64,000 bases of DNA, taken from IMG/VR virus record IMGVR_UViG_3300028048_000040, positions 128,001-192,000 of that record; one strand, 5' to 3'. Both the position numbers and the translations under genes were made by a program. The DNA comes from a virus (Duplodnaviria; Caudoviricetes). A model generated the notes under the pieces. The model was not told where the DNA came from. It did no database searches and saw only the letters and a list, made by a program, of their open reading frames with translations. Positions within the stretch are counted from its first letter, which is position 1, and each line of letters opens with the position of its first letter. Shown here piece by piece: positions 7,083-54,705 of this stretch.

Positions 7083-8150
7083 ATGGAAAACAACGAAATC
7101 AAAAACGAACAAGTCAATGAAAGAAAACCTTACTATCGTAAAAACAACTATCGCCGTCATCAGTGGAGAGAAAAACCTCAGGCTATTTCTTATATTAAAT
7201 CCTTTGATAACTTTAATGATGGTTTTACCGAAGTGATTCGGTTTAATCCTGAATTGAAGAACTATTGTGGTGATTTTGGTTCTTATGATGCTGTAATTGC
7301 TTCTATGACCAAAGCGATTAATGATAATATTCCGTCTCCAAATAATATTAACTATCCTAACACTCTTTCTCTTAGTATTGATGCTAATGAAGTAGGATTT
7401 AAAACGGATACTAATATTGCTCTTGGTTGGAGAATTAGATACTCTTATAAAGAAGCTAAGACTTATTATAATTTCCGTGTAACCTTCATCTCTATTCCTG
7501 TATATAAGAATAATACTATTGCAGATATGGTAGAAGCAGGTTGGAAGAAACTTGTAAAGTCTAATCGACAGAATCGTTATTGGAATCATCTCGAAGGAAA
7601 AGATCGTGAAGAATCCAATGAAGGATTTAAAGTAAAAGAACTCATTGGAGAACAGAAGATTTCTACTAATCATTCTATGAGTATGCCTAAAGCATATAAT
7701 GAAGATGAATATGATGATGTAGAAGATTCTGTAGCTGATTTAAAAGAGATTCATACTGCTGATAATACAGTAGATGATGAAGATATTCTCAATCCAGGAG
7801 ATGAAGTTGCTATTATTAGTGATGAATCTGTAGCTGCTGAACTTGGAGTAGATAAAATCATCTTGAATGGTGAAGATATCAGTAAAGAAGAAGCAGCTGA
7901 AAAGATGGAAGAAGTTCTTGATAAAGTAGAAGAGCAAGCAACTTCTGGATATGTAGAATCTAATGATAGTATCTCTGCAACTGCTAACCCTAGTGTATTT
8001 ATCATCAATCACAAAGGTGAACCTCGTGTAATCAATATTGATGCAGATGATATTGCTTATGGTGATATGCTCGTTAATAAAGAAACTGGTTTGATTAGCT
8101 TTGCTGATGGAACTATTTTTGATTATAAGAACTTAAATATAATGCATTGA
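7083..8150 (+). CDS. Hypothetical protein with acidic C-half
   Basis: ORF track 7035..8150; AAGGAG SD favours ATG 7083. Confidence 0.7.
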   Translation: MENNEIKNEQVNERKPYYRKNNYRRHQWREKPQAISYIKSFDNFNDGFTEVIRFNPELKNYCGDFGSYDAVIASMTKAINDNIPSPNNINYPNTLSLSIDANEVGFKTDTNIALGWRIRYSYKEAKTYYNFRVTFISIPVYKNNTIADMVEAGWKKLVKSNRQNRYWNHLEGKDREESNEGFKVKELIGEQKISTNHSMSMPKAYNEDEYDDVEDSVADLKEIHTADNTVDDEDILNPGDEVAIISDESVAAELGVDKIILNGEDISKEEAAEKMEEVLDKVEEQATSGYVESNDSISATANPSVFIINHKGEPRVINIDADDIAYGDMLVNKETGLISFADGTIFDYKNLNIMH

Positions 8151-8232
8151 AATGCATCTCCTTAATTCATAACATTTAACACCTCATAACTTACCCCTAG
8201 AGCTTAATTGCTCTAGGGGGTGTTATTTGTTT
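8142..8232 (+). ncRNA. Candidate anti-SD sRNA or 3'-UTR element
   Basis: AACT-N6-TAA at 8130-8142, atgcat hairpin, CUCCUU and CACCUC seeds, terminator hairpin 8194-8219. Confidence 0.4.
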
Positions 8233-8296
8233 GCCGAGACATAGGTGTAAGTCTAGACTAAATAAAAGACTAGGAGAAAGGAGGAAATTGATAATT

Positions 8297-11200
8297 ATGG
8301 CAAGCAATAGCATTGTAGACTATCTTAAAAATGTAGGTCAATCTGTTAAGTTTGCTGCTATCGAAAGTGTAACTGAAAAGACGCCTAATCTACAAAAAGT
8401 ATTTGGTGAAAACAACAAGAAATATGTTCAAGAACTCTATAAAGATGTGAATCAACATAGACAAGAATTGAATATGATTGATCGCATTAGAAATGCGACT
8501 GTTTTCAAACAGATATCTGTAGGTTGGGATAATCTAAAGGATTCTATCAAAACTGGTAAATTCAAGGATGATTCTAGAAGTACTGGTTTTGATGAGATGG
8601 AAATGATGTTCGCAATGATGGGAGATGACTTCTTAGGTGGAGATTCAGATCTTATCGAAGCTGAAATGAATGGAGAAGAAACAGGCTCAACTAACGATCA
8701 TCGAATCCGTGGTATACCAGAAATCACTAAAGGTGATGCTCTTGTTGCAACAGCATCAGCTACAGCAACAAAGAATGCAGCCTCTACTATATCTAAAGCC
8801 ATTGTTAGATCTGCTGAATTAACAGATATAACTGCAAGAAAGTCTACAAATTTACAATTAAGGGCCCTGCAACAACAAGCAAACATTTTATCTAGTGGTT
8901 TTCAACAACTATCTAGCTCATTGCATACCATAAATCAATTTAATAATCAAGTTGTCATAACTCATGCTCAAAATAGCAGAATGTTCTTTGAACAAGCCAC
9001 TGCATTAGCTCAAGAGAGAAATGCTATTCTTAGAGAAATGCTAGAAATGCAGCGTGAAACCTTTGGTGCTACAATGAAATCAAATCTGTCTTCTGATGCA
9101 AATGATTTGACTAAAATGAGTAAAATCTTTGATAAAGAAAAAGGATTTGATTTAAGAGCCTATATGAGCTTAATGCAAAAGAGAATGAAAGAAACTCCTA
9201 TTGGAATGATGATGATGTCTATAAAGATGCTTCCAATGATGATAGGAGAAGTAGTTCAAAATCCATTGCATTATATTGCTAAAATGGGTATAGATTCAAT
9301 CATAGATAATAGTCTTAAGAAAGCTATTTATAATATAGATCAGTCAATAAGTGGAATGATATCTACTGGACTAGCTAAACTTGCTAATTATGGTAAAGAT
9401 AAAGCTACTAAGAATACATTGTTAGGTCAAATAGCTAGTTTTTTTGGTGTAAGAAATGAAAATACTAGATTATCTGCAGTAGATACTTCTAAATATAATA
9501 AAGAAGCAATTCAATGGAATGGCATTGCTCAAAAAGCTTTAGTAGAAGTTATACCAGGTCATTTAAGAAGAATAGAAGCTGCTCTTACTGGTGAAGGAGA
9601 AAGAGTATTCGATCTCCAATCTGGTAAGTGGTCTACAATGAAAAAAGTAGCTAATATAGAAAAAGATATAGATCGCAAAGTATTCAAAGAAACTTTCTCT
9701 AAAGAGAAGAATCAACTTCTTAATATGATGCAATTTAAAAATAGAGGAGAAATGAGAGATTGGATTAAAGCTCTTGATAGCTTCTTTAAAGGAGTTAGAA
9801 ATAGAGGTATGGTGGATTATAACCATATTAGAGAGAAATCTAGTGAATATGGAGATAATGAAAATATAGTTAAAGCTATAGCATACATGATCCATTCTGG
9901 TGGATTAGATTCTTCTCAGATATTCAATCTTACTAATAAAATCAATGAAGGTAATGCTAAGAAAGCTGCTATGATAAGAGATCTTAGCCCAGCTAATCAA
10001 TCTCTTGTAACTGAAGCAGTTAATAATTCTTATAATGCTAAATGGGCTGCTGGTACTGGATCTATATATGGTGCAAATGGTAAACAGCAAGTAGATAAAA
10101 ATGGTAGATGGTTATCAATGCCATTTAATGATCTTACTAAACTTACTGATACCAGAGGATACACATTATATGATTATCAATATAATATTCTTCAAACTCT
10201 TTTAAATATGCAAAGATCTGGTGGATTAGGTGGTGGAAGACCTGCAGGCCCTGTAGGACCAGTTGGACCATCTAATGGTGGTATACCAATTCAGAATCCT
10301 CAGAATATAATAGCTGGTGGATTGGTAAGAACTGGAAATACTTTCACTAATGCTGTTCCATCAGAAGCAAAAGATCCAAATTCTGCTCAAAGACAGCATG
10401 CTGCTAATCTAGTACAAAAAGCTCAAGAAAAATCAATATCTAGAAGAGCTCTTTATCATCCAGATAAAAGTGGATTAGATGAAGAGCAAAAACTCGACTT
10501 CTCTGTAGAAAGAATTAAAAATGCAAGTAAAGAAGAATTAGAAGAAATGATAGCTCATATGTATTTTGCTGGTCAAACTGGTAAAGAATATAGAGCTAAT
10601 ACTAAAGTAGCATCTTCTGGTGGAATATTTGGAGATCTTAAATCTGCTGCTAGAGGTTTAGGAGTTTCAAGTATTGATAGCTTCATGGCAGATATGCAAG
10701 AAGCAACTTCTATTGCAGATAAATTCAATGTTGTTGGCGAAGCATTAAGATCAATGACTTCTGCCCCTCAAAAGATATTAACTTCAGTTCTTACTGAAGC
10801 AGATAGATTCATGTATGAATTTATGTTTGGAAATCCTGTAGGCACTGAAAAGGATGAGAATGGTAAACCGATAGAAGGATTCTTTGGTAAAGTTACTCAT
10901 GAATTTGGTAAAACCATGGATAATCTCAATAATAAATTCAATGAGTGGTTTAAAGATACATTCAAAAAAGGTGCTGGTGGAATAGCAGGATTTTTCAAAG
11001 GAGTTCTTGAAGATTATTTCAATATTGATGTAGATGAAAAGGTTGAACAGGCTAAACGCCACGTGAAGAAATATACTAATAAAGTCAAAAAAGGTGCATT
11101 ATCTGCTGGTGCTGATCTATTTGGTATTGCCAAAGAAGCAGTATTAGGAACAGCTCAAGATATGGGTATTTATGAACCAGATGAAGAGGAGGAACAAAAA

Positions 11201-14200
11201 AAAGAGCAACAAACTCCTCCTACAGCATATAGAGGAATTAGAAAATATGATTCTAAATATGGTATAGGTGTAGTAGGTCCTGGTGAAAAAATAATATCTC
11301 CAGGTAGAGGAAAGGTATTAGATAATACTACTGGTTATAAAGTATATGCTTTGCAATATGGAGATTCTGTAATACCTTCTTATCTAAATACATCTAATGC
11401 AGGCAGAGGCAGAGTAACTCCTCAATCTCTTGCATCTCAAGAATATAATGAAAAATCTTTAGCTAAAAGTATAGCAAGAGGCAATGTACCAATATTAGGT
11501 ACATTTAGTGGTGCTAATGCATCATGGAAAGATATAGGTGGATGGATAGGAGAGCTTAAACGTAAAGAGCAAGAAAGATTTGAGCATGGAGATGGAACTC
11601 CTAAATTAGAAGATGCTAAATCAAAACGTGGATTCTTCCATAACTTTGTAAATTGGATGACTGGTTATAATGAACCAGAATTTACTGAAGATCAAATCAA
11701 AATGCAAGAGTTCATTAAAGATATAGTAAATAGTGCTACTAAAGCTGCTATTGAAGCTAATGGTGGAGCATTTGAAGATGAAGAATCAAAAGGAAGATCT
11801 ATTACACAAGCTGGCTTTGAAATGGCTGGTAAACTAAGAAGAGGTAATGTAGATCTTAATACTAATGAATTCCAAGAAGCATTAAAAGAAGTTCTCGCTA
11901 TGAGTGAGAATATCAAAGATCCAGATTTTAGAGATACACTTCAATTTATTTTAAATACTGCTGGATATAAAGGTGAATTTGATACTGTAGATGATTCTAA
12001 AAAAGTAAGAAGATCAAGAAGAAATAATCTATTTGTTGGTGTAAATCAATTTATGGATAATGCCTTTGGTATTGATTCTAAAAAAGCAATAGATACAGCA
12101 GATAAAACTATTAGAAAGAATCTGCCAGAACTCGCTAAAGGTGGAACATTTGGTGCTTTATTAAGTACAGTTCTTCCTCTTGGTGGTCCTTTAATGGGTG
12201 CACTTGTTGGTGCTGGAGCTTCTGTATTAACTAATAGCAAATCTTTCCAATCCTATATGTTTGGAACAGAAATAACAGATAAAGATGGAAATGTAATAGA
12301 TAGAAAAAATGATGGTATTGTATCAAGAAAAACTGTAAAAGCTATTCAAAGATATTTACCAGATGCTAAGAAATATGGTATTACAGGTGCATTAGCAGGT
12401 CTTGTTCTTCCTTTTGGTCCACTTGGTGGTTTGATGATTGGTGCTGGTGCTTCTTTCTTAAAGAACAACAGTAGATTCCAAGAATTTATGTTTGGTGAAG
12501 AAGGAGGCTTAATCAATAAAGATAGAAAAGAAAGAATCAAGAGAGCTCTTCCAAATATAGGTGTCGCTACACTAGGAACGTTATTCCTCGGACCTTTTGG
12601 TATCGTAGGTAACGCTATGCTTGGTGCTGGTCTAGGTATTTTATCTACAACAGAATCATTTAAACGTATTATGCTCGGTTCTAAGGATCGTAATGGTATA
12701 AGACGTGGTGGTTTAGCTGATATTATTAGAAGGCAAATTACAGACCCATTCAAGAAATCAATGCAAGATATTCAAACTAGATTAGCTGCTTGGTTCAAAG
12801 ACGATCTATTCAATCCTGTAGCTAGAACTATTAAACCACTTGGTAGAAATATTACTGGTGAAATATCTAGACTCCTTAGATGGGGAGCAGGTCAAATCTT
12901 TGGTAAGAAAGATGAAAAAGAAAAATCAATATTTGGTAAATATGGACTCAAATCTGTAGATAGAATGCTGGGATTGGTTCGTAATGCTGGTGGTCTAGGT
13001 AAATTTATTACTGGTGGAATAGGCAATGTAATTGGTGCTGGTGCACATGCACTAGAAAATCAAGTAGGTAAGAGATTAGAAAGAAGAGCTTTCAGAAAAG
13101 GATACTATGAAGATGGTACTCTTGCTGATGAAAGAATGGCTCGTGGTGCTGAATTAGGTCTTGATGCAAATAATGCAGATCAATATGCATTAGGTGGTTT
13201 AGATCAGTTAATGGCTAAACTAGAACAGGGGCCAAATGCTCAGAAGAACCTAACATCTTTAGCAGCTGCATTAAGTGCTATTCAATCAAGAACTGAAGGT
13301 ACAGACGATAACCTCAATAGACAAATAGCTGCAGAAAGAGATAATATTATTTCTAATTCTGAGAAGCTATATTCTGATTATCTAAAGAAGAATCCAACAG
13401 AAAAGAATCCTCATGATCTATATCGAAAAGTAGAATCTATGAGAGATAAAATGCTCAAGATGGCAAAAGCAGAAAACTTTAATCCAGAAATAGCTCAAGG
13501 TGAATTTGCAAAAGAATTAGCTAAATCTGATCTTCCTAGAGAGATAAAAGATCAAATGATGGAATTGTTCTTAGATTCTGGTGGCTCTATAGCCAAATTC
13601 CAGAGTGCTAAAGATAATCTAAGTAAACGTAACTATGCTGAAGCAGAAATAGCCAAACTATTAGGATATAATGTAGACGAACAGCAATATGATAAATTAG
13701 ATGAAAGTGTCAAAAAACAAATAGAAGCAATAAAGAAACACCCAGAAGCAATATCTGCTGTTAATAATGATATTAGAACTCTAAAAGAAAGAGCAAGCTC
13801 TGATGAGTCTGCTGCAGCAAAACTAAAAGATCAAGTAACTGATCCTGGAGATCTGTCTATAATCAATAATATGGAAAAACAGGTAGATCAGAATGATGTT
13901 ATCATTGCCACTTTAGAGCATATAGCTAATATACTACAGACTAATGATCCCAAGAAAAGAGAAGAGCTTCAAGCTCAATTTAAAGATACTCTAGATAAAT
14001 ATAGAGGTACTGGAAATAGCGATAAGATAAATAATGCTATTGCTAATGCCAAAATAGCATCTCAAAGAGCTAAGAATCAAAAAGACAAAGATGATGCTAA
14101 AGTAGAACAAGGTAAAGATTTAAATAAAGAAATCTATGATGATTCTTACTTTGACCCAGATAAAGCTATCAATAATCCAGAGATAAAAGCTAAATTCGAA

Positions 14201-17200
14201 AAAGATCATGGAAAATTACTTGAAAATTGGCACGATCAATACCAGAAAGGTCTGCTATCAACAGAAGACTACTATCGTAGAAGAAATGAGTTATTAAAAG
14301 GTACATGGGATGAATACCATGGCAATACAACAATGGGTGCTATTAAGCACGATATAAAACTAGTTGGTGGTAAAGTTGCTAAAGCAGCTAATTCAATTAC
14401 AGAGAAAAGAGAAAAAGCTCTAGATTATATAGACGAAAAGACTACAGACTTCTTAAATGAAGCTCCTGATAAAATAAAAGAAAATATAGTAGAACCAACA
14501 GCAGAAGCTTTTGGTATGGTATCTAAACCTATCATAGCAGGTTTCCAGATGCTAGGTAAAGCAGTAATTGGTTTAGCTAGAAAGATATCTGGAGAGTATG
14601 AAACAATTGCTGATAAAGCAAATCCGATGTCAAATATTGAGAAAGATCAAACAGACAAAAATATTCCTCCTACAGCTACATATGGTTTACCATTCTTTGG
14701 TACATTTGCTGGTGGTACTGCTGCTGCAGGCGCTGCCAAATCAGGTGGTGGATCATTAATAGGTTCTGTTCTCAAAGGTGCTCTTGGTGGAGCTAAAGAC
14801 TATTTTACTGGTGGATCAAGTGATAAGAAAGAAGAACCTTCAAACAATGTAAAAGAAGTTCAACAATCTACTCCTTCTGCAGGAGAAGTCAAATCTACAG
14901 CTGGTCTCGTGGCATCCTTCGACCACTCTAAGGCGAATGGTGGTGCTCCCGATATCAATGCTAAAGATAATGTATCTTATACATCTGATGCTGATGGTAA
15001 CCTAGTGGCTATCGTAAAAGGGCCAGATGGAACACCAATGAAATTAAAGAACAAAGATAATGCTGAAATTGAAAAGAAACATCAACAAGAATTTGAATTC
15101 AAAGAAAGATCTGCAAATGCATTAGAAGCAATTGCTGCTAGATTAGGTGCCAAAGTTAAAGGTGTGGGTAAAGCCATAGCTGATGCTGGTGGTGGACTAC
15201 TTGGCGGTTTGCTAGATTCTATAGGTGGACTCATAAACACATTGTTCCTTGGTCTCCCTGTAGGTACATGGTTGATTAGCAAACTTAAATCTTTACCAGG
15301 CAAATTATTCAAATTATTAGGAAAACTAGTTCCAAATTCAATCAAAAAATTCGGTGCCGATTTAATGGCAAAAGTTGCAAAACTTCCTGGGAAACTAGGA
15401 GAAATGGTAGGAAAAGGTTTCGCTTCTGTTAAATCATTAGTAGGAAAGAAACTAGGTCAAATAGCTCCTTCACTTACCAAAAACTTAGTAAAATTATTAT
15501 CAAAGAGTAGAGTAGGTGCGCTATTACTTGGTGGTGGTGCAGTTGCTACTGGTGCTCTCAAAATGTTTGGTGTTATAGATGATGATGATAAAACTCCATC
15601 ATTACCTCCTGGATCAAAAGTGATAGAAAAAGAAAATGGTTCAAAGGTAGTTGTAGATGAAAATGGTAAAGAACTAGATATTCCAGCAGAAGAAGTAGAA
15701 TCTGAAGAAGATTCTGGTATGAGTGCTGGTAGTCTTGCTAAAACAGCAGTAGCTGGTTATGTTGGTCGTGAAGCTGCTAAAAAAGTAGGATTAAAGAGTG
15801 CAGGTGGTAGAGCTGCTGGTGCAACACTTGCTAATATAATTGCTAATGGTGGAGAAGTAGATGCTGGTACTATAGCTGATTTTGGTATGTCTTATGGAGC
15901 TGAAAAGCTAATAGATAAATTTAGTGGAAATAAAGTACCAACAACTGGTTTAGAAGCAGAAGGTCCTAAAAATAGACCTGCAGGTCAATATAGAAATGCT
16001 ATAGAAGCTAAGAAAGCTGAGATTGCTCAAAGAAAAGCAACAGAAAAGAGTATAGCTCGTCATCAAAGAAAACTTGCACAACAAGCTGCAAAGAGTGGAG
16101 CCAATGTAATTGAAAACAATGCAACTAATCCATCCATTTGGGATAAAGCTAAAAATGCTGCTAGCAGTCTAAAAGATTGGGCATCTAGTAAATTCTCAAC
16201 TGGTACAGAATCAGCCAAAAGTATATTCAAGACTGGAATGAATTCTGAAGTAGCTAATAAGCTCAAAGATACTACTTCTTTGGTTAAAGATACTTCTAAA
16301 CAAGGTGTAGAGGCTGCTGTTGGTAAAATTAGATCTGCTATGCAAACTGTAGTAGAAGCTGCAGGAAAATGGCTACCAGGCAAGACTGTTGGGGAGGCTG
16401 TATCTAATTTCTGTAAGAAAATTATGGAAAAGGTCACATCTTCTCAAGGTATGCAAATACTCCAAAAGAAGTTATCTCAGCAAGCTGCTACAGCTGCTGG
16501 AGGTGCTGCTCTTGGTATTGGTGCCGTTGCAATAGGAACTATGTTCTGCGTAACTTCTTTTATTAGTGGTTACAATCATGCAGCAGAACAATTTGAAGTT
16601 CAAGAGTCTGTTGTTACTAATGGTATGAAAGTAATATCTGGTTTAGTTCATGCCATTCATTGTGCTATTGGATTAATTCCTATAGTTGGATTAGCTTTTG
16701 CATTGATAGTATCTCCAAAACAGATGCTTGATTATGCTATAGACTTAATTGGTCCAGCAGTAGGATTATCAAGACAAGATTTACAAAAATTACAAAAATC
16801 AGGTCAAAGTGTAGTAGAAAATAATGTTAAAGCTGCTCAAGAATATGGTAAAGGCAATCCTGAAATCAATGATAACCATTCTGGTGGTGGATTCTTTGAT
16901 ACAGTTAAAGAAACTGCTGCTGGTGCATGGGATAAAGTTAAAAGCGTTGCATCCTCTGCTTGGGAAGGAGTTAAATCTGGAGCAAGCTGGGTAGGAGATA
17001 AAATTTCAAGTGCTGGAAGTTGGATCAAGAATAAACTTACTGGTCAAGGTAAACACTCTACTTATGGTAGAGGAGGATTATTTGGAACTGGATTCCACTC
17101 TCAATTAGATCCTGCTATTGCAGGTATGGGATTCAATGTATCTGGAGATACAGAAAAACAAACTGTAAAAGATTCTGCTTGTGGTCCAATGGCTATGGCA

Positions 17201-20200
17201 AATGCTCTTGAATCAGTTGGTGTATCTGTAGATGATAAAGATATTATTAATAAAACTAAAGGTGGAAAAGAGAAGAATGGTGGTACACCAGACTATGTAC
17301 TCAATAGATACGCTAATAATCAAGGAATCGCTACTAAATCTGTAGGAACATCTGAAAAAGATCTTGCTAACTCTCTTAAATCTGGTAAACCATTAGTACT
17401 AATGGGTCAGAATAATATGGGAGAAACAGATAAAGATCCATTTGCAGAAAATCCACATTACGTTACTGCTACTGGACTAGATAAAGATGGTAATGTAATA
17501 ATAAAAGATCCAGAATCATATCAACCAGTTAAGACTTATAAACTTAGAGATATTGCTCAAAAGACTACTATTGCTACTGAATTAAGTAAAGACAGAGAAC
17601 CTAAATTCTCTGAAGGTGCAAGTTTAAAAGAAATAATGGCATGGAAACTAAGACATGCTGGAAGATCAAAATGGGGTAGAGAAAGATCTAATGGTAATGC
17701 TGAATTACTATGGAACCATCTGAAATCTAAAGGATTATCAAATCAAACCATATCTGGCATGTTGGGTAATTTCGCTGCTGAATCTGGTTGGAGATCTTCT
17801 GCTGTACAGAGTCCATCAGGAAAACCAATAGATTCGGATACAATGACTATAGATGGGAAAACAGGATATGGACTAGCTCAATGGACAGACAAGGGTAGAC
17901 AGCAAAGATTGCGCAGTTTCTTACAATCAAAAGGATTACAAGATTCAGATTATAAGGGTCAATTAGATTTTGTTCTTTCTGGTCAAGATGGTGATGTATC
18001 TAATCTATTCAAAGAAATGGACGGGATGACTCCAGAAGCAGCTGCAGAAAAATTCTGTGCAGCATATGAGCGTCCAGCAAAAGATAACAATGGTGTTTGG
18101 TTAGGACTTGCTACAAGAAAACAAAGAGCAAGAGAATTATTTCAAAAAGAAGGTAAAGGAGTAACATCAAGTAGCTCCTTCTCAGGAGGTTCGAGTTCAT
18201 CTTCTGGAGCTGCCGAGATTGCTCAAGAAGAACAAGAACCTGGAATTCTTGGAGCAATTGCTCAAGTACTTAATAAAATAAGGTCAATAACAGATATATT
18301 TGGTACTAATTCTTCATCATCTAGTGGGACTCCTGGTTCTATTAGTGGTGGATCTGTAAATTATCAAGATGCTGCTAAAAAGATAGTAGAATGTGCATTA
18401 GCATATGAAAAATCTAAAATTCAATACGGTCAAGTTAATCCTCCTTCTCCTCCAAAAGACGGTGGACAGTGTGACTGCTCTGGTATGGCTCAAAACTGTT
18501 ATAGAGCAGCTGGAATAGAAATTCCTAGAACAGCTGATATTCAATGTGCTTTCTTTAAGAAGCATAATGCTACATTTACCGGAGATATGAAACAGCTCAA
18601 AGCTGGTGATCTAGTATTTACTAGTGATTCTAGTGGAGAAGTTGATCACGTATTCGTATATATTGGTGATGGTAAAGCTGTCAACCTAGGTGGAAGAAAT
18701 GGCAAAGGTTCAAATGGTGGAGATGCTCGTCTATATAATGGATGGGATCAAATCAAAGCAGGTATTGAATGGCACAAGGGCCCAGCAACATTTGGTAGTC
18801 TAGAAAAGCTTTGTGCTGCTACTGGTCAAACTCAAGCTACAGGCACTGGTTATTCAGGATATGGACCTAAAAGATCTTCAACTAATAGAATTATCATTCA
18901 TCACACTGCTGGAGCTAAAGGTATTGATCCAAGTGCAGCAGAAATAGATAAGATGCATAAAGGAAATGGTTGGTCAGGAATTGGCTATCATTTTGTTATT
19001 CGCAAAAATGGTACTATAGAAAAAGGTAGAGCTGAAGATGAACAAGGAGCTCATGCTGAAGGTGCCAATAAAGATTCTATTGGTATTCATGTAGGAGGAA
19101 ACTTCGAATTAGAAAGCCCTACTCAACAACAAATTGCTTCATTAGTAAAATTATTACAACAACTTTGCAAGAAATACAATATTCCTATTGATAGAAAACA
19201 TATTTTAGGCCATAAAGAAGTAGGTCAAACTGCATGCCCTGGTGCAAATCTTTACAGTCAATTAGATTCGATAGTTGCTCAAGCAGCTGGAGGAAAAGGA
19301 AAATCAAGATTTTGTAAAGACAAACCCAATGTGCCAGATATACTAAAAGAAAAATCAAATAAATTTGGTAAAGGTAAATCAAAATATGGTAGAAGTATAT
19401 TCAGTGATATATCAAATTGGTGGAATACTAGAGATCAAAGAAATGCTAGAAGATATGCTGGTCAAGATGATTCTTTAGCAGCAAGATATGGACATGATTC
19501 AGAAAATGAAGGATATGTTGCTCCAACAGTATCTACAACAGATCAAATGGCAGATCAAAGAGATGAAGAATTTAGTGGTCAAGAAAAAATAAGAACAATG
19601 TCTTCTGAAGAACTTGCTGAAGCAGAAGAAGCTGGAAATGTTATTAAATCTATAGCTCAAAAGAAATCTACTGGAGAAGATGCTACTAATGAAGAAATTC
19701 AAAAAGCTGCTAAAGAAGGAAACTTAGAAACTGGAGATCAAACAGTACAAAATATAACCGAGCAGCAGCAAAAAGCTTCTCAAACTAATCTAATGGATAA
19801 ATTCTTCGGTGGTGTTGGCGCTAGATTAGATGCAATTGGAGCTAAATTAGCTCCTATCAAAGATATGATTAGATCAAAACTTGGTTCTGTTATTGGAGAT
19901 AAATTTGGCAAATTTGCTGATTTAATTGGAGATCCTCTTAAACATTTTGGAGGTCTTTTTGGTTCAAATAATAGTAGTTCTTCAAGTGCTGATGGTTCAC
20001 ATGGCGGTGGAGGAGGAACCTTTAATGGTGATGCTACAGCTATACCTGCTACTGGTTCTGCTGCCGCTGCTTTAAAGAAAGCACTCAATTGTGAAATCAC
20101 TAGTCAATTTGGTCCACGTAGTAGTGGAGTGCACCATGGTATAGATTATGGTATTGGTACAGGTACTCCTGTTCCTACTGTAACTGATGGTGTGATTGAT

Positions 20201-21772
20201 GATATAGGATCTCAAGGTGGATCTGGATATGGTAATTATGTTGTCGTAAAAGACAAGAAAGGTATGTATCATATTTATGCTCACTTAAGTCAAAATAATC
20301 TAGCTAAGAAAGGCGATTCAGTAAAAGCTGGTCAAATTATAGCAAAATCTGGTCATAGTGGACATTGTGATCCACCTGGAGATCAAGGATCACATCTACA
20401 TTATGGAATCTATAATAATCCTAATTGTGCTGCTGGTGATGGATGTATTAATCCAAATTCTTATAAAATAGATGGATTAAGTTCTTCAGGTCAAGGAAAA
20501 TATGGTAGAGGTAGATTAATCAAAATCAACCCAGTCAAAACTAAAGGTTCTGATGAAGGTGGAGTTGATACAAAGAAATATGTTCCTAAAAGTGGCAGAG
20601 GCAAATTCAAATCTACTGGATTAGAAGATCTAGATATTACTAGAGCTGCTACATATCCAGATTTCCCAAAAGAAATAAAAAGTCCAGATAATACTTTTGG
20701 TATTACTGACAATATGATTACTCAATCTAAATATGGAAGAGGTAAGTATGGTAGAGGATTTAGCTTAGATAGTATTTCTTCTGCAATATCTTCCTTTGGT
20801 AATATATTTGGTCAAGTATCTAAAATAGGAAATTCTATATCTGGTTTATTCCATCATCCTAAAGGAATCTTTGGAAATAAACAAGATCAAAAATCTAAGA
20901 GTAAGACTACTACTTCAACTACAACAACTAAAGCTCAAGCCCAGCAAGCTATATTAAGTGCTGATGATCCTGAAGTCAAGAAAATAGAAGAAGATTATAA
21001 GAAAGAAATGGAATCCTTTAATGGTATTCCTACAGCTCAACAACAGATGATGGCTCAAATGGGTCTACATCCAGCTGTTAAAAGAGAAAGAGCTCTTAAA
21101 GCTCTGATTGAGAAAAAGAAATCTAATTCTATTACTAAAGCTCAAGATGATTCTAAATTTAAATTAGGACAAGAAGGTTCCCATGGAGCAGGTCCTAATG
21201 GAAAGAAATATACTAATAATGATATAGCATATATACTCAAGAATTCTGATAAATTTGGTGGAGCTAAAACTATAGAAGATGCTATCAAGATTCTAGAAAA
21301 AGATAAAAAATATACAGAAAAAACAGAAACTACCAAAAAAGAAGATAAGACCACTCCAGATTCAGGCACTACCGCCAACTCTGGAGAGGGTGTAGAAGAG
21401 AAAAACGAAAATATTAAGAGTGGTGTTACTACTCCCACACAAAAGACTTCTCAAGAGGCTTCTAAGCCTGTTTCTGCTCAAGATAAGCTTGATATGCTAA
21501 TTGCTGCTCAAAATAAGACTAATGAATTATTATCTGCTATACTTAATATGGCAGCTAAAGCAATGGATGTCAAAGAAACTGATGTCAAAGCAGCTGAAAA
21601 GACTGCTAAAGCAAATAATAAGAAGATGAATGAAACTGCTGCTATGACTAAGTTGAATTATTTCTATAATAACTCAATGAAGAATAGCGGAGTTGATACA
21701 AGCTTCTTCAATCCTGATTCAGGAGATTTTATTGATATAACTAAACGTATGCAAAATATAGCTTCAATGTAA
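8297..21772 (+). CDS. Giant tape-measure-like / tail-associated lysin with C39-like, phage-tail lysozyme, NlpC/P60, amidase-2 and M23 domains
   Basis: GAAAGGAGG SD favours ATG 8297; late promoter 8238-8250; long helical Ala/Gly-rich body with GPLGG hydrophobic repeats. Domains: Q..SACGP..HY..DP (~17090-17585), GMLGNFAAESG..YGLAQWT..YERP (~17696-18148), DCSG..GDLVF..HVFVY (~18371-18810), IIIHHT..IGYH..GAHA..GH..TACPG (~18869-19275), HHGID..YAHL..HLH (~20089-20465). Confidence 0.88.
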   Translation: MASNSIVDYLKNVGQSVKFAAIESVTEKTPNLQKVFGENNKKYVQELYKDVNQHRQELNMIDRIRNATVFKQISVGWDNLKDSIKTGKFKDDSRSTGFDEMEMMFAMMGDDFLGGDSDLIEAEMNGEETGSTNDHRIRGIPEITKGDALVATASATATKNAASTISKAIVRSAELTDITARKSTNLQLRALQQQANILSSGFQQLSSSLHTINQFNNQVVITHAQNSRMFFEQATALAQERNAILREMLEMQRETFGATMKSNLSSDANDLTKMSKIFDKEKGFDLRAYMSLMQKRMKETPIGMMMMSIKMLPMMIGEVVQNPLHYIAKMGIDSIIDNSLKKAIYNIDQSISGMISTGLAKLANYGKDKATKNTLLGQIASFFGVRNENTRLSAVDTSKYNKEAIQWNGIAQKALVEVIPGHLRRIEAALTGEGERVFDLQSGKWSTMKKVANIEKDIDRKVFKETFSKEKNQLLNMMQFKNRGEMRDWIKALDSFFKGVRNRGMVDYNHIREKSSEYGDNENIVKAIAYMIHSGGLDSSQIFNLTNKINEGNAKKAAMIRDLSPANQSLVTEAVNNSYNAKWAAGTGSIYGANGKQQVDKNGRWLSMPFNDLTKLTDTRGYTLYDYQYNILQTLLNMQRSGGLGGGRPAGPVGPVGPSNGGIPIQNPQNIIAGGLVRTGNTFTNAVPSEAKDPNSAQRQHAANLVQKAQEKSISRRALYHPDKSGLDEEQKLDFSVERIKNASKEELEEMIAHMYFAGQTGKEYRANTKVASSGGIFGDLKSAARGLGVSSIDSFMADMQEATSIADKFNVVGEALRSMTSAPQKILTSVLTEADRFMYEFMFGNPVGTEKDENGKPIEGFFGKVTHEFGKTMDNLNNKFNEWFKDTFKKGAGGIAGFFKGVLEDYFNIDVDEKVEQAKRHVKKYTNKVKKGALSAGADLFGIAKEAVLGTAQDMGIYEPDEEEEQKKEQQTPPTAYRGIRKYDSKYGIGVVGPGEKIISPGRGKVLDNTTGYKVYALQYGDSVIPSYLNTSNAGRGRVTPQSLASQEYNEKSLAKSIARGNVPILGTFSGANASWKDIGGWIGELKRKEQERFEHGDGTPKLEDAKSKRGFFHNFVNWMTGYNEPEFTEDQIKMQEFIKDIVNSATKAAIEANGGAFEDEESKGRSITQAGFEMAGKLRRGNVDLNTNEFQEALKEVLAMSENIKDPDFRDTLQFILNTAGYKGEFDTVDDSKKVRRSRRNNLFVGVNQFMDNAFGIDSKKAIDTADKTIRKNLPELAKGGTFGALLSTVLPLGGPLMGALVGAGASVLTNSKSFQSYMFGTEITDKDGNVIDRKNDGIVSRKTVKAIQRYLPDAKKYGITGALAGLVLPFGPLGGLMIGAGASFLKNNSRFQEFMFGEEGGLINKDRKERIKRALPNIGVATLGTLFLGPFGIVGNAMLGAGLGILSTTESFKRIMLGSKDRNGIRRGGLADIIRRQITDPFKKSMQDIQTRLAAWFKDDLFNPVARTIKPLGRNITGEISRLLRWGAGQIFGKKDEKEKSIFGKYGLKSVDRMLGLVRNAGGLGKFITGGIGNVIGAGAHALENQVGKRLERRAFRKGYYEDGTLADERMARGAELGLDANNADQYALGGLDQLMAKLEQGPNAQKNLTSLAAALSAIQSRTEGTDDNLNRQIAAERDNIISNSEKLYSDYLKKNPTEKNPHDLYRKVESMRDKMLKMAKAENFNPEIAQGEFAKELAKSDLPREIKDQMMELFLDSGGSIAKFQSAKDNLSKRNYAEAEIAKLLGYNVDEQQYDKLDESVKKQIEAIKKHPEAISAVNNDIRTLKERASSDESAAAKLKDQVTDPGDLSIINNMEKQVDQNDVIIATLEHIANILQTNDPKKREELQAQFKDTLDKYRGTGNSDKINNAIANAKIASQRAKNQKDKDDAKVEQGKDLNKEIYDDSYFDPDKAINNPEIKAKFEKDHGKLLENWHDQYQKGLLSTEDYYRRRNELLKGTWDEYHGNTTMGAIKHDIKLVGGKVAKAANSITEKREKALDYIDEKTTDFLNEAPDKIKENIVEPTAEAFGMVSKPIIAGFQMLGKAVIGLARKISGEYETIADKANPMSNIEKDQTDKNIPPTATYGLPFFGTFAGGTAAAGAAKSGGGSLIGSVLKGALGGAKDYFTGGSSDKKEEPSNNVKEVQQSTPSAGEVKSTAGLVASFDHSKANGGAPDINAKDNVSYTSDADGNLVAIVKGPDGTPMKLKNKDNAEIEKKHQQEFEFKERSANALEAIAARLGAKVKGVGKAIADAGGGLLGGLLDSIGGLINTLFLGLPVGTWLISKLKSLPGKLFKLLGKLVPNSIKKFGADLMAKVAKLPGKLGEMVGKGFASVKSLVGKKLGQIAPSLTKNLVKLLSKSRVGALLLGGGAVATGALKMFGVIDDDDKTPSLPPGSKVIEKENGSKVVVDENGKELDIPAEEVESEEDSGMSAGSLAKTAVAGYVGREAAKKVGLKSAGGRAAGATLANIIANGGEVDAGTIADFGMSYGAEKLIDKFSGNKVPTTGLEAEGPKNRPAGQYRNAIEAKKAEIAQRKATEKSIARHQRKLAQQAAKSGANVIENNATNPSIWDKAKNAASSLKDWASSKFSTGTESAKSIFKTGMNSEVANKLKDTTSLVKDTSKQGVEAAVGKIRSAMQTVVEAAGKWLPGKTVGEAVSNFCKKIMEKVTSSQGMQILQKKLSQQAATAAGGAALGIGAVAIGTMFCVTSFISGYNHAAEQFEVQESVVTNGMKVISGLVHAIHCAIGLIPIVGLAFALIVSPKQMLDYAIDLIGPAVGLSRQDLQKLQKSGQSVVENNVKAAQEYGKGNPEINDNHSGGGFFDTVKETAAGAWDKVKSVASSAWEGVKSGASWVGDKISSAGSWIKNKLTGQGKHSTYGRGGLFGTGFHSQLDPAIAGMGFNVSGDTEKQTVKDSACGPMAMANALESVGVSVDDKDIINKTKGGKEKNGGTPDYVLNRYANNQGIATKSVGTSEKDLANSLKSGKPLVLMGQNNMGETDKDPFAENPHYVTATGLDKDGNVIIKDPESYQPVKTYKLRDIAQKTTIATELSKDREPKFSEGASLKEIMAWKLRHAGRSKWGRERSNGNAELLWNHLKSKGLSNQTISGMLGNFAAESGWRSSAVQSPSGKPIDSDTMTIDGKTGYGLAQWTDKGRQQRLRSFLQSKGLQDSDYKGQLDFVLSGQDGDVSNLFKEMDGMTPEAAAEKFCAAYERPAKDNNGVWLGLATRKQRARELFQKEGKGVTSSSSFSGGSSSSSGAAEIAQEEQEPGILGAIAQVLNKIRSITDIFGTNSSSSSGTPGSISGGSVNYQDAAKKIVECALAYEKSKIQYGQVNPPSPPKDGGQCDCSGMAQNCYRAAGIEIPRTADIQCAFFKKHNATFTGDMKQLKAGDLVFTSDSSGEVDHVFVYIGDGKAVNLGGRNGKGSNGGDARLYNGWDQIKAGIEWHKGPATFGSLEKLCAATGQTQATGTGYSGYGPKRSSTNRIIIHHTAGAKGIDPSAAEIDKMHKGNGWSGIGYHFVIRKNGTIEKGRAEDEQGAHAEGANKDSIGIHVGGNFELESPTQQQIASLVKLLQQLCKKYNIPIDRKHILGHKEVGQTACPGANLYSQLDSIVAQAAGGKGKSRFCKDKPNVPDILKEKSNKFGKGKSKYGRSIFSDISNWWNTRDQRNARRYAGQDDSLAARYGHDSENEGYVAPTVSTTDQMADQRDEEFSGQEKIRTMSSEELAEAEEAGNVIKSIAQKKSTGEDATNEEIQKAAKEGNLETGDQTVQNITEQQQKASQTNLMDKFFGGVGARLDAIGAKLAPIKDMIRSKLGSVIGDKFGKFADLIGDPLKHFGGLFGSNNSSSSSADGSHGGGGGTFNGDATAIPATGSAAAALKKALNCEITSQFGPRSSGVHHGIDYGIGTGTPVPTVTDGVIDDIGSQGGSGYGNYVVVKDKKGMYHIYAHLSQNNLAKKGDSVKAGQIIAKSGHSGHCDPPGDQGSHLHYGIYNNPNCAAGDGCINPNSYKIDGLSSSGQGKYGRGRLIKINPVKTKGSDEGGVDTKKYVPKSGRGKFKSTGLEDLDITRAATYPDFPKEIKSPDNTFGITDNMITQSKYGRGKYGRGFSLDSISSAISSFGNIFGQVSKIGNSISGLFHHPKGIFGNKQDQKSKSKTTTSTTTTKAQAQQAILSADDPEVKKIEEDYKKEMESFNGIPTAQQQMMAQMGLHPAVKRERALKALIEKKKSNSITKAQDDSKFKLGQEGSHGAGPNGKKYTNNDIAYILKNSDKFGGAKTIEDAIKILEKDKKYTEKTETTKKEDKTTPDSGTTANSGEGVEEKNENIKSGVTTPTQKTSQEASKPVSAQDKLDMLIAAQNKTNELLSAILNMAAKAMDVKETDVKAAEKTAKANNKKMNETAAMTKLNYFYNNSMKNSGVDTSFFNPDSGDFIDITKRMQNIASM

Positions 21773-21774
21773 AA

Positions 21775-21866
21775 AAGAAAGAGTAAGGCTTTTATAGCCT
21801 TACTCTTTTAAAATAGGAGATGATTCACAACCTGGAATAGTTTGTCTGCACTCTCAAACTACCCAT
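21775..21866 (-). ncRNA. Candidate sRNA (promoter, hairpin, AUCAUCUCCU seed, terminator)
   Basis: Minus-strand early promoter 21864-21878 with GTAAAC 13 nt upstream; hairpin 21834-21864; anti-SD at 21815-21820; bidirectional terminator 21778-21808; no ORF with an SD. Confidence 0.6.
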
Positions 21867-21896
21867 TATAATAATATATCTCTATTTTTTAGTTTA

Positions 21897-21983
21897 CTCA
21901 AAAAAAGATAGGCAGTTATGGCTCTACCTATCTTTTCTCTAAAGGGATAATGGATAGTAGGTCTCTAGTCTCCTATCCATCAT
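21897..21983 (-). ncRNA. Candidate sRNA (promoter, hairpin, UCCCUUU seed, terminator)
   Basis: Minus-strand early promoter 21981-21995; hairpin 21947-21983; terminator 21903-21936 with U tail. Confidence 0.6.
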
Positions 21984-22064
21984 AATAATAATATATAACT
22001 ATAAAAAAGTTTGCTTCAGCACAAATGTATAATGAGAAGTTTAAAAGGAGGAATATATAATACT

Positions 22065-24218: not shown

Positions 24219-24236
24219 CAGTTATATATTATTATT

Positions 24237-24323
24237 ATGAGAGTATGATGAGAGCCAAACATTATACTCTTAAAAACTTCCTAAGAAGATAGATAGTTAA
24301 TGTGCTGACTATCTATCTTTTTT
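24237..24323 (+). ncRNA. Candidate sRNA (promoter, hairpin, ACUUCCU seed, terminator)
   Basis: Early promoter 24225-24239; hairpin gagtatgatg-agagccaaa-cattatactc; terminator 24286-24323. Confidence 0.6.
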
Positions 24324-24388
24324 ATAAAGTAAAATAAAAAATAGATATATACTATTCCTATGAGTATGAGTTGAAGGAGGAATAAGTT

Positions 24389-24662: not shown

Positions 24663-25391
24663 GTGATACTTATCAAATCTAGAAAACAAAAGAAAACTCT
24701 CTATGACTCTAAATACTCTCATATTCCTAGAGATTATAATGAGAGATTATCATGGATGTATGACACACTTCATATTACACCAGATAAAGAAAATTATATT
24801 TTACAAGCAAGAGATCAATATATTCAAAACATGGCATTTAGTCCAGAAATATTAGTAGTATTATATGAAGAACCAGAAGGTTCTCCTAGACCAAGAGCTA
24901 GATTTGTCAATAAAGGAAATCTATCTGCTAGTGCTAAAGCAAATCCAGGATTCATACAAGTATATTCTATTACTGGTGCTGCAGATAGAAAGTTTATGAA
25001 ACAATTTATATCAGATAATGATTTTCTACAATTAGATCAATTGATATATACTCCATGTAATATAGAATTCGATGCATTCTTTAAAACACCAAATTCATTT
25101 AATAACACAGATACATTTTTAGCAGAACTTGGATGTATACGACCGATATCAAAACCAGATTTTGATAATATTGAAAAGAAATATGCTGATATGTATAATG
25201 GAAATGTTTGGATAGATGATGCTCTAGTAGTAGATGCAGTAGTTAGGAAATACTATTCTATTCTTCCTAGAGTTGAGATTCATCTTAGATTTCTAAACAT
25301 GCTTTATAACAAATACCAATATAAATCTATATCTAATAGAGTAGAGAGCACTAACGTAAATTATTTCAATACTATATATAAAAAGGAATGA
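24663..25391 (+). CDS. rusA: RusA-family Holliday junction resolvase
   Basis: GSPRPR and KPDFDNIEKKYAD..G.VWIDDA.VV motifs; start codon uncertain. Confidence 0.85.
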   Translation: MILIKSRKQKKTLYDSKYSHIPRDYNERLSWMYDTLHITPDKENYILQARDQYIQNMAFSPEILVVLYEEPEGSPRPRARFVNKGNLSASAKANPGFIQVYSITGAADRKFMKQFISDNDFLQLDQLIYTPCNIEFDAFFKTPNSFNNTDTFLAELGCIRPISKPDFDNIEKKYADMYNGNVWIDDALVVDAVVRKYYSILPRVEIHLRFLNMLYNKYQYKSISNRVESTNVNYFNTIYKKE

Positions 25392-25765
25392 TTTACATGT
25401 TAAAAATTTATCCATCTGGTTTAGATCTAAATATGAAGAACAATATCCTAACAGCTCAGTATATGAAACAAAAACTAACACGAATGGGATATCTAACAAC
25501 ACAATCTATTTATAATACTATAAAGGAGTTCTTTCCTCAGTTTAATGAGAATGCTATAGGATATATGAATACAGAAATAACAATATCATTATCAGGAGAA
25601 ACTATATATCAGATAAGGAGTATCTTAGTAGAGTTATTTAATAGATTGAGTAGTAAACTAAGTGGATTAGTTAGTTTAGATGAACAGAATATATTGATCA
25701 GTAGACCTGAATTATTTTATACTATTCAAACAGTAGCTCCAAACATATATATAATCAGAATATAA
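25388..25765 (+). CDS. Hypothetical protein, 125 aa
   Basis: ORF overlapping the rusA stop (ATGA). Confidence 0.65.
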   Translation: MIYMLKIYPSGLDLNMKNNILTAQYMKQKLTRMGYLTTQSIYNTIKEFFPQFNENAIGYMNTEITISLSGETIYQIRSILVELFNRLSSKLSGLVSLDEQNILISRPELFYTIQTVAPNIYIIRI

Positions 25766-25910
25766 GATAAGGAATGGCGAGACTTATCTTAGTTTTGTTT
25801 TGACATAATGAATCCTCCTAAAATACTCCTTTCATGATGTTTGTTCGTTGTTTCTCCTTTTTCATAAAACTTCCCTAATACACTCCCTAGGTAGAAATAC
25901 CTAGGGAGAT
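25754..25910 (+). ncRNA. Candidate multi-seed anti-SD sRNA
   Basis: AACA-N6-TAA at 25742-25754; hairpin 25763-25791; CCUCCU, CUCCUUUC, UCUCCUUU and CUUCCCU in the linker; hairpin 25883-25908. Confidence 0.6.
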
Positions 25911-44602: not shown

Positions 44603-44633
44603 GTAAACTAAAAAATGGTTATATACTATATCA

Positions 44634-44830
44634 GTGTAGAAACAGGTATTGATTAGTTTATATCGAGTTGTTAAGATGCTTATGTTTATTCTAAACTATT
44701 TCGGTATTTGAGAATACGCCCTAATCAGTACCTGAATCTACTATTAACGACTGTTGTCGTTAGCTGAGGAATATTATTACAGAGAAATAACTATAGGACG
44801 AGTCCCTCTAGGCTCGTCCTATAAGTTATT
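44634..44830 (+). ncRNA. Candidate structured leader / riboswitch-like RNA
   Basis: Early promoter 44603-44636; 19-bp interrupted stem 44636-44656/44721-44741; UUCG hairpin; pseudoknot-or-hairpin alternative; long hairpin 44786-44830. Confidence 0.65.
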
Positions 44831-44864
44831 CAAACATTCAGAATTTTTTAAAAAAGGTGATATA

Positions 44865-45395
44865 ATGAAATTAACTTTTATTGATGTAACTGGCAAACCT
44901 GAACTTGTAGAATGGGTTCAGAATAAGGAAACTGGTGGTAAAGCTGCTATATTCCGTATGTATGCTTTGGAGATGTTGGGTACTCCATTAAAAGCATTAA
45001 TGCCATTAGCAGATACAATGTTGTATCTGAACCCAACGATAGAAGGAGATGAAAACTCCAGGATATTTGATGAAAAGTATGCAAATCAATTATCCAATTT
45101 CCCAGCAACTAAGTTTGATCTGGCAATATTACTAGAACAACTTCAGTTGAAGGACGAGGTATATGTAGTATGCAATTATACTCATCCCACTGTAGGTCCT
45201 ATTGTAGACAGTCTCTCTAAATATATCCAGCAGAAGTATACTTTCCAAGGTATATATCTGGTAAATGATCTTGAGGATATTGATGAATTTGCTGCATCTG
45301 AATTTGATACAGATGAAGGATATGAAGCATTTGTCAAAGATATTGAATGGATGACTAGTCAGAGAGATACGGTGGAAGATGTTCTCAAGAAGTGA
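44865..45395 (+). CDS. Hypothetical protein
   Basis: ORF track 44754..45395; AAGGTGA SD favours ATG 44865. Confidence 0.7.
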   Translation: MKLTFIDVTGKPELVEWVQNKETGGKAAIFRMYALEMLGTPLKALMPLADTMLYLNPTIEGDENSRIFDEKYANQLSNFPATKFDLAILLEQLQLKDEVYVVCNYTHPTVGPIVDSLSKYIQQKYTFQGIYLVNDLEDIDEFAASEFDTDEGYEAFVKDIEWMTSQRDTVEDVLKK

Positions 45396-53716: not shown

Positions 53717-54552
53717 TTAATGATAAAATAAGTTTAGGAGAAGATATATCTCTTGATAGTGCTACAGAGTATATGAGTATACAAGATGGACGTAAAGATG
53801 GATTAGATACTCTAGTTACTATTCAGGATAAAAGAACTGGAGAAGTAGTATTCAAAGGAAAGAATCGTACTATGATTTCTGGTTCTGAGTTCATGGCTTA
53901 CCATGTATTCAGACTAAATAACTTTAATTTTACTACTCCTACATATAATACTCAGATAGGATTAGATCATACAGTATCTGGTTCTCAGAATGATCTTGGT
54001 TCTAATTATGTTACTCAAGTATTCTGTGTTGGCACTTCTGGTTGTAATAGAGAATCTGCTATTTGGTATCCTGTATCTAATAAGAAATGGATTGCTCCAT
54101 CAGAATTAGTACCATTTCAATATGTTCCTAGTAATAAAGACTTAACAGCTTTACAAAGAGAAACATATTTTGGTAGAAAAGAAATGGGTAACCAATATAT
54201 TGCTTATTATTTTAAGAAATTTGATTCTAATCCTATTTATAAGAAACAATATGAAGATGGTACTCCATGGAATGCTAGTATTTTTGAAGATAATTCTGAA
54301 GCAAATGCTCAGATGAGTGTTACTACTACAATGACTATCACTAAAGATGATTGTAGAGATTACTTTATCAATACTACTGGCATTAATGATGGTAGATTTA
54401 ATTGTCTATCTCTATGCTTAGCATGGACTGATGTATTTGATGGGTTTACATATTATCAAGATATTAGACCACTCACTAGAATCAACTTCCCAAATAAATT
54501 CTTAAATGATCTTACTAGTGAATGGTTAGTAACTTATCATATCTACTTCTAA
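53713..54552 (+). CDS. Probable baseplate/tail structural protein, 279 aa
   Basis: Coupled (ATGA) to the upstream structural gene. Confidence 0.55.
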   Translation: MINDKISLGEDISLDSATEYMSIQDGRKDGLDTLVTIQDKRTGEVVFKGKNRTMISGSEFMAYHVFRLNNFNFTTPTYNTQIGLDHTVSGSQNDLGSNYVTQVFCVGTSGCNRESAIWYPVSNKKWIAPSELVPFQYVPSNKDLTALQRETYFGRKEMGNQYIAYYFKKFDSNPIYKKQYEDGTPWNASIFEDNSEANAQMSVTTTMTITKDDCRDYFINTTGINDGRFNCLSLCLAWTDVFDGFTYYQDIRPLTRINFPNKFLNDLTSEWLVTYHIYF

Positions 54553-54574
54553 TTTCTTACTTAACCAACATAAA

Positions 54575-54705
54575 GTAATGAAATAGAAGTGGTTACTCCA
54601 CTGCTATTTTTAGCATAATATTGATAATAATACAAATTGATAATTCATTTTCTCTCCTTCTAGAATAATTCTAACCCTGGAGTCTATTGACTCCAGGGTG
54701 GTTTT
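54575..54705 (+). ncRNA. Candidate anti-RBS sRNA or cis-sequestering element
   Basis: Hairpin 54581-54610; CAUUUUCUCUCCUUCUA at 54646-54662; terminator hairpin 54674-54699. Confidence 0.45.

Follow-up and report, generated by a model that had tools for sequence, protein, structure and literature searches.

T4-type phages carry promoter-early stem-loop (PeSL) cassettes (Arbiol et al. 2010, PMC2839356), in which a terminator stem-loop is combined with a strong early promoter. The composites recur in the genome and bound insertions and deletions between close relatives, each cassette having its own promoter and terminator and an ORFan gene as cargo. In the Pseudomonas jumbo phage 201phi2-1, ONT-cappable-seq revealed small RNAs (sRNAs) of a short 'premature termination' type and of an intergenic type, so that short self-terminating transcripts are already known from a jumbo phage (PMC11512511). 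A third precedent is found in the T4 genes e, soc, 49 and I-TevI, whose leaders sequester the ribosome-binding site (RBS; reviewed in PMC3014915). Here we compare with these systems six intergenic units, numbered 1 to 6, in a 64,000-nt stretch of phage DNA (the window: bases 128001-192000 of the 342,328-bp IMG/VR virus record IMGVR_UViG_3300028048_000040, G+C 31.6%). An initial annotation had described them as one dispersed family of sRNA genes with anti-Shine-Dalgarno (anti-SD) seeds; its observation was partly right, the family claim was wrong and the anti-SD silencing layer is unsupported. The units split into two kinds, and we give about even chances to the joint reading in which units 2, 3 and 4, plus a seventh unit at 56827-56927, are early cassettes and units 1, 5 and 6 are untranslated regions linked to their neighbours.

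The early units share with PeSLs the composite of terminator stem-loop and early promoter and the position at insertions and deletions between close relatives. Unlike PeSLs, whose promoter is sigma-70-like, they use a promoter of the AR9 virion-polymerase type, and the cargo of units 2-4 is an 85-nt hairpin RNA instead of a gene. With 201phi2-1 they have in common a terminator less than 250 nt after the start site, no coding sequence and, in many instances, a position ahead of genes; the sRNAs of 201phi2-1 were observed and one of them is conserved across genera, whereas the units here are predicted and conserved among strains at most.

The window belongs to the genome of an AR9-like jumbo phage found in bovine gut metagenomes (public sequencing runs), and split RNA polymerase subunits are encoded in it. 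The closest relative, G001 (332,775 bp), aligned over 77% with 87% identity; pattern and protein scans of viral contigs yielded no other close relative, one metagenome scan recovered a single short contig, and the phage GenBank collection held no match to the window, near or distant. Among the strain contigs, L035, L063 (~97% identical) and L065 differ from the window, and L061 and L062 are identical over the compared stretch. The comparison with G001 is strongly mosaic, with 353 perfect runs of at least 60 nt beside segments of 45-75% identity and with boundaries that frequently fall at terminator hairpins, for instance at 25910 and about 8139. All six units are missing from more distant relatives, the whole window gave no Rfam match at gathering scores, and ARAGORN found no tRNA or tmRNA.

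What the units do share is a layout. As initially described, none contains on the named strand an open reading frame (ORF) led by a Shine-Dalgarno sequence (SD), and the predicted fold of each has a hairpin at the 5' end, then an unpaired stretch and a strong hairpin at the 3' end (z-scores of -3.1 to -7.8 against shuffles); the strong terminal hairpin is present in all six, that of unit 5 being without a U-tail. The bodies have no sequence in common, the only recurring part being the promoter, and when units 3 and 4 were folded to a consensus, only their terminators aligned. Moreover, the first 45 nt of early transcripts have a mean folding energy of -7.5 kcal/mol versus -3.5 for shuffled sequences, and since early transcripts are thus structured at the 5' end in general, the 5' hairpin is no special feature of the units.

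The early promoter of AR9, read by its virion RNA polymerase, has the consensus AAATATATATTAT-(6N)-G(+1) (PMC5312081). The early motif of the phage studied here, TATA[T/C]TAT-(6N)-G, equals this consensus and occurs in 72 strict copies in the genome, often preceded by gtAAAC and a T-run, most of them 5-80 nt upstream of the SD and start codon of ordinary genes; 24 of the 72 have a terminator of the same strand ending 11-57 nt upstream, forming composite modules. Perfect early promoters, TATATTAT-(6N)-G with an A/T-rich upstream part, stand at units 2, 3 and 4 and at the unit at 56827, and the 'ATG' that opens units 2-4 is the start-site triplet of the promoter, with G as +1, and not a start codon. 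The AR9-type late motif is AACA-(6N)-TA (or TA/G). Its variant ACA-N6-TAA, with 65 intergenic matches versus about 27 at other spacings, is a real, spacing-specific motif that peaks 20-40 nt upstream of start codons, about 40% of the intergenic matches (27/65) being expected by chance. Among units 1, 5 and 6, AACA-N6-TA is matched only by unit 5, and both the ACT-N6-TAA of unit 1 and the N5-spaced motif of unit 6 occur at background frequency. Of the promoters initially assigned to the units, the early ones of units 2-4 are confirmed, and unit 5 has a good match to the late-type motif; that of unit 6 is not credible.

A genome scan for an early promoter followed by a terminator ahead of any SD-led ORF recovered units 2-4, the seventh unit at 56827-56927, which had been overlooked and whose linker is without any C/U motif, and further cassettes at genome positions 14888, 220710, 300520 and 315484; reading through the promoter list added orphan units at 15713, 83557 and 89788. 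The cassettes are mostly placed directly upstream of a second early promoter serving a normal gene. In orthologous orphan units the promoter, the first ~20 nt and the terminator are kept with compensatory changes, and the middle drifts.

Comparison of strains revealed how mobile these cassettes are. In G001 the flanks of units 2-4 and of the unit at 56827-56927 align at about 90%, but the units themselves are missing. Units 2 and 3 stand at a place where G001 has a single terminator, and unit 4 lies exactly between two halves or copies of a promoter that is single in both L035 and G001, which points to an insertion bounded by promoter repeats; in a metagenome variant without unit 4, positions 24234-24371 are replaced by 15 nt. 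Three strains keep unit 4 with its CUUCCU, both stem changes being G-U/G-C swaps, at a divergence of about 4-5%, similar to neutral DNA. Unit 3 is identical in L063, a strain ~3% apart. In the same strain unit 2 has kept its promoter and hairpins and has had its linker replaced, with loss of CUCCU; insertions and deletions in this region are also seen in metagenome contigs. No donor of the replacement linker was found, the shared UAAUUCAU word being a common one. The predicted folds are strand-asymmetric, with -31.8 kcal/mol for unit 3 in sense versus -23.1 in antisense, and -33.2 for unit 4 on the named strand versus -20.8 on the opposite one; each has four G-U pairs, which account for the much greater stability of the named strand.

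With a promoter, a fold and a terminator predicted for each, units 2-4 plausibly correspond to early transcripts that are short, discrete and non-coding, and the cassettes as a class are polymorphic non-coding early units that are probably transcribed. In the mechanism that we propose, the injected virion RNA polymerase would read their AR9-type early promoter, as in AR9, and the intrinsic terminator 84-92 nt downstream would end a short early RNA carrying no gene. Cassettes would be gained and lost through recombination within the repeated terminator-promoter sequence, in a PeSL-like way, and the C/U stretch would not be a conserved seed, nor would the RNA have a sequence-specific role in translation. 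The RNA data at hand are low-depth metatranscriptome contigs, without ends or strand, from two RNA libraries; they include no contig for units 2-4, an absence that we do not use as evidence.

Unit 6 is of the other kind. The initial annotation had noticed sequences that mirror a complete RBS, and this holds for unit 6, which mirrors the RBS of the next gene, that of the RNA polymerase beta subunit, and not for the mirrored sequence as a general anti-SD seed of the units. The unit 6 stretch at 54644-54663 and the SD and AUG of the gene at 54763 are predicted to form a helix of ~18 bp (10+4+4), with an energy of -19.1 kcal/mol in this genome and -21.5 in G001, which appears in the minimum-free-energy and centroid folds of both. 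Just 1 of 346 other upstream regions pairs equally well with this RBS, and the difference between cis and trans pairing ranks third among 347 genes (empirical p about 0.006). Moreover, unit 6 and the beta gene lie together inside a 1.48-kb inversion in G001, where unit 6 remains about 94% identical, with differences in the hairpin loops and the linker and none in the predicted stems. In more distant relatives, with beta subunits 36-52% identical, only a plain terminator is found upstream of the beta gene.

These pairing predictions make unit 6 a candidate RBS-occluding element. Its pyrimidine stretch would be the 5' arm of a long-range helix burying the SD and AUG of the beta gene, with transcripts that read through the unit 6 terminator being translationally silent and those from the promoter near the beta gene being translated, following the logic of T4 e, soc, 49 and I-TevI. 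As in the T4 leaders, an upstream sequence pairs with SD and AUG, and the gene has its own late promoter inside the structure, so that silencing would affect only the longer read-through transcripts. Unit 6 differs from the T4 leaders in the distance of about 100 nt between its arms and in the strong terminator that lies between them, in a phage with its own multisubunit polymerases. Table 1 lists the features of all units.

Table 1. Predicted features of the seven units and of adjoining promoters and start regions (window coordinates)
Feature	Position	Strand	Details
Unit 1	8142..8232	+	hairpin 8142-8157 over stop codon of gene 7083-8150; UCUCCUU 8157-8163; terminator 8186-8226
Late-type ACA-N6-TAA of giant gene	8239-8250	+	after unit 1; giant-gene ATG at 8298
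Unit 2	21773..21878	-	promoter TATATTAT 21878-21871, G(+1) 21864, 5' hairpin, linker with CAUCUCCU; RNA ~92 nt
Unit 2 terminator	21778-21808	bidirectional	also terminates giant + strand gene
Unit 3	21898..21995	-	promoter TATATTAT 21995-21988, G(+1) 21981, 5' hairpin, 7-nt linker UAUCCCU
Unit 3 terminator	21904-21935	-	predicted RNA ~84 nt
Unit 4	24225..24325	+	promoter TATATTAT 24225-24232, G(+1) 24239, 5' hairpin, linker UAAAAACUUCCU
Unit 4 terminator	24286-24319	+	predicted RNA ~87 nt
Second early promoter after unit 4	24348-24355	+	TATACTAT; serves 65-amino-acid gene at 24389
Unit 5	25742..25910	+	AACA-N6-TA 25742-25753 inside end of gene 25388-25765; hairpin 25763-25791
Unit 5 pyrimidine blocks (four)	25813-25885	+	followed by hairpin 25884-25909 without U-tail
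Unit 6	54567..54705	+	hairpin 54584-54606; anti-RBS stretch 54644-54663 (UUCAUUUUCUCUCCUUCUAG); terminator 54675-54698 with U-tail
Late promoter	54714-54725	+	AACAatcataTA, AACA-N6-TA, between helix arms
RBS and AUG of RNA polymerase beta-subunit gene	54746-54766 (ATG 54763)	+	3' arm of helix with unit 6
Seventh unit	56827..56927	+	promoter 56827-56834, G(+1) 56841, hairpin 56852-56875
Seventh unit terminator	about 56901-56924	+	then next early promoter at 56933

The segment inverted in G001 spans 54567-56045 and comprises unit 6, the late promoter, the beta-subunit gene and a palindromic terminator; a 212-amino-acid gene resembling helix-turn-helix proteins (56086-56724) and the cassette 56827-56927 are missing there. 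Outside the window, genes at genome positions 228683 and 206079 (window 100683 and 78079) show stronger upstream anti-RBS pairing than unit 6, at -27.6 and -24.5 kcal/mol, respectively, and may be further instances of read-through occlusion; at 228683 the 5' arm (ACACCUCUUCUUUUU) is located just upstream of that gene's early promoter.

In the sequence comparisons, units 1, 5 and 6 behave as parts of neighbouring modules and not as independent genes; they would be terminator-bearing untranslated regions within those modules. Unit 1 and the downstream giant gene form a single conserved block, the upstream gene being just 44-80% identical, and the pairing of unit 1 with the downstream RBS is unspecific (rank 146 of 347, equalled by 154 of 346 null regions). 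Unit 5 lies within a block ~97% identical to G001 that also holds the upstream genes and ends at 25910. Its 112-nt perfect identity with G001 was considered as a special feature and ruled out, long runs being common in such mosaic blocks. Clusters of pyrimidine blocks like that of unit 5 number 7 in the genome versus about 12 expected by a Poisson estimate from block density, and one contig of the RNA libraries spans 25469-25874, which is weak evidence for transcription of unit 5.

The giant ORF between units 1 and 2 (8298-21772, about 4,490-4,513 amino acids) probably encodes a virion protein. The gene table of an identical contig assigns to it Peptidase_C39_2, Phage_lysozyme2, NLPC_P60, Amidase_2 and Peptidase_M23 domains, a set that makes it look like a multi-lysin virion protein, and metagenome contigs show large internal skips and replacements in it.

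The temporally staged silencing layer envisaged in the initial annotation found no backing, its motif being neither enriched nor conserved and units 2-4 missing from G001. CTCC occurs 2.18 times per kb in intergenic sense sequence versus 1.90 in coding DNA, CTCCT is likewise about equally frequent in both, and no enrichment of anti-SD words is thus seen. The orphan early units, which form an unbiased set, hold four CTCC in about 1.1 kb versus 2.4 expected, which we do not count as enriched. Nor is the seed kept: it is lost from unit 2 in L063, weak in units 3 and 4, which hold just UCCC and UUCCU, and absent from 56841-56927. In duplex predictions against 348 phage RBSs with shuffled-seed controls, only unit 5a had a best target better than those of shuffled seeds. 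In a genome this AT-rich, chance alone would give exact complementary matches of 13-15 nt; the complementarity of unit 5 to the RBS at 7062-7075 (14/14) is real and was rejected as a specific target, being one of three equal matches. The sole exception to chance-level complementarity is that of unit 6 to its neighbour gene.

Other explanations of the units have to be weighed with these results in mind. One family of trans-acting sRNAs, whose C/U seeds would pair with host or phage SDs in early and late silencing of the RsaE/RoxS type, would account for the promoter-hairpin-linker-terminator layout, for the RsaE-type UCCC word in the linker of unit 3 and for the orphan units at genome 315484 and 83557, which keep ACUCCUU and GCAUCUCCA in G001; the sRNAs of 201phi2-1, short transcripts that end soon after the start site, are a precedent among jumbo phages (PMC11512511). 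The RsaE and RoxS RNAs of Firmicutes are indeed similar in length (about 90 nt) and in having two hairpins and a word, UCCC or CUCC, that is left unpaired, but the motifs of RsaE are strictly conserved across genera, and in duplicate, whereas the words here vary or vanish between strains, and the units have no Rfam match. We judge such a family decidedly improbable, given the anti-SD frequencies, the target predictions and the replaced or missing seeds described above, a partly deleted seed in orphan unit d of G001, the unrelated unit bodies, the absence of units 2-4 from G001 and of homologues from more distant relatives, and a 5-6-nt anti-SD that would match every mRNA, the phage's own included. 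A related view, to which we assign a similarly low probability, sees the cassettes as fast-evolving sRNAs with a conserved scaffold of promoter, 5' hairpin and terminator, spread by promoter-repeat recombination, in which the linker is swapped to retarget start regions; the linker replacement in the otherwise 97-99% identical unit 2 would then be a seed exchange and not decay. It is also unlikely that units 2-4 are inert, being duplicated promoters and terminators that cassette recombination or the deletion of a gene left behind, and that their RNA, if made, has no function. Presence/absence polymorphism, a divergence faster than that of the flanks and the neutral-like 4-5% of unit 4 would agree with debris, but if two composite modules had simply lost the DNA between them, one module would remain and no hairpin cargo of 85 nt, unit 3 does not differ between two strains ~3% apart, and the strand-asymmetric folds with their G-U pairs and the changes that preserve pairing fit a selected RNA. 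A very improbable explanation, finally, is that the C/U stretches with CAU are reverse complements of real or relic RBSs on the opposite strand, belonging to minigenes or to remnants of inversions and deletions, with no RNA function on the named strand. On the opposite strand, unit 6 reads AGAAGGAGAGAAA-ATG plus 12 codons and unit 5 reads AGGAGG-7 nt-ATG plus 5 codons, along with a 15-codon frame, in a region rearranged by the 1.48-kb inversion of G001. Against this, a frameshift in G001 reduces the unit 6 minigene to 7 codons and leaves the RBS mirror in place, the opposite strand has no promoter motif near unit 5, and any minigenes in unit 5 would run antisense to a + strand operon.

For unit 6 the main alternative is action in trans as a c4-like antisense RNA, which may extend to unit 5. 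In phages P1 and P7, the c4 RNA works by masking the RBS of icd. It resembles the proposed unit 6 RNA as an antisense RNA that shares strand and operon with the genes it represses and is encoded upstream of them; it differs in being cut from the operon transcript and in serving the immunity of a temperate phage, unit 6 being without a shown promoter or processing site. In P1/P7 the c4 RNA, located upstream of icd-ant, is needed for full ant repression (PMC8198154). Applied to unit 6, an RNA ended at 54675-54698 would bind the beta-subunit RBS and set or time its translation. The complementarity of about 18 bp to SD and AUG, the joint passage of unit 6 and its target through the inversion with the predicted stems unchanged, and the strong terminator, which would release an RNA of about 60-130 nt, would all suit such a mechanism. 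We nevertheless regard it as unlikely, since no credible promoter is at hand (AACA-N5-TA at 54567 has background spacing, and ACA-N6-TAA at 54638 is not conserved in G001) and relatives with beta subunits 36-52% identical have only the plain terminator. The reading that we prefer, early cassettes plus neighbour-linked untranslated regions with an occluding helix at unit 6, also meets several difficulties. That helix must span a strong terminator, so that few cis transcripts may exist, and the module is inverted in G001, so that upstream read-through differs there. Moreover, for 20 of the 346 other RBSs the pairing with the unit 6 region is as good as for the neighbouring RBS, and upstream anti-RBS sequences show no genome-wide excess (-0.19 +/- 0.15 kcal/mol). 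For a cassette RNA with no sequence-specific role, it is awkward that units 2, 4, 5a and 6 pair with the phage RBSs as a whole, in the median, more strongly than shuffled seeds do (0/25 shuffles), which speaks for the sRNA family, that orphan units c and i keep a CUCC word in orthologues, and that the folds of units 3 and 4 are far more stable in the transcribed orientation, the stem changes of unit 4 keeping the pairing. The low-depth metatranscriptome contigs, finally, may contain DNA.

If the cassettes are expressed, this AR9-like, Gram-positive-type rumen phage would join the few jumbo phages with short non-coding early transcripts, and promoter-terminator modules of a virion-polymerase phage would be seen to shuffle non-coding cargo as the PeSLs of T4 shuffle ORFans. 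Unit 6, if our reading is true, would extend T4-type read-through silencing to a phage with its own multisubunit polymerases, and to the gene of a polymerase subunit. Current views are not overturned by these results, whose main value is a correction: chance alone is expected to produce anti-SD-like words in the AT-rich intergenic DNA of phages, and unless they are conserved they should not be taken for seeds.

Other leaders were noticed in the course of the analysis. The early promoter at 5432-5439 starts a G+C-rich leader of ~200 nt (5432-5700) with a terminator at 5599-5634, just upstream of the ThyX gene (5700-7031, PF02511). Its core is nearly invariant in G001, with three compensatory pair changes in the first hairpin; a search of 5380-5720 against Rfam at E<=1 gave only a terminator-like partial match, and the layout looks riboswitch- or attenuator-like. 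A recurrent early leader is present in the window at 34637-34700 and at genome positions 9170, 29902, 80218 and 105346 (- strand), in the order promoter TGTATATTAT-agcaGTGATAAAG, hairpin, AAGGAG and CTTTATCATG, and its 5' end can pair over the start codon. In a 600-nt gap between + strand genes outside the window (genome 197940-198460), the - strand contains late-type motifs, pyrimidine-rich stretches and hairpins. Finally, a 240-nt leader runs from an early promoter to the gene at 44865 (44622-44865) and includes a hairpin of -23 kcal/mol at 44787-44829, which is unchanged in G001, the middle of the leader having diverged.

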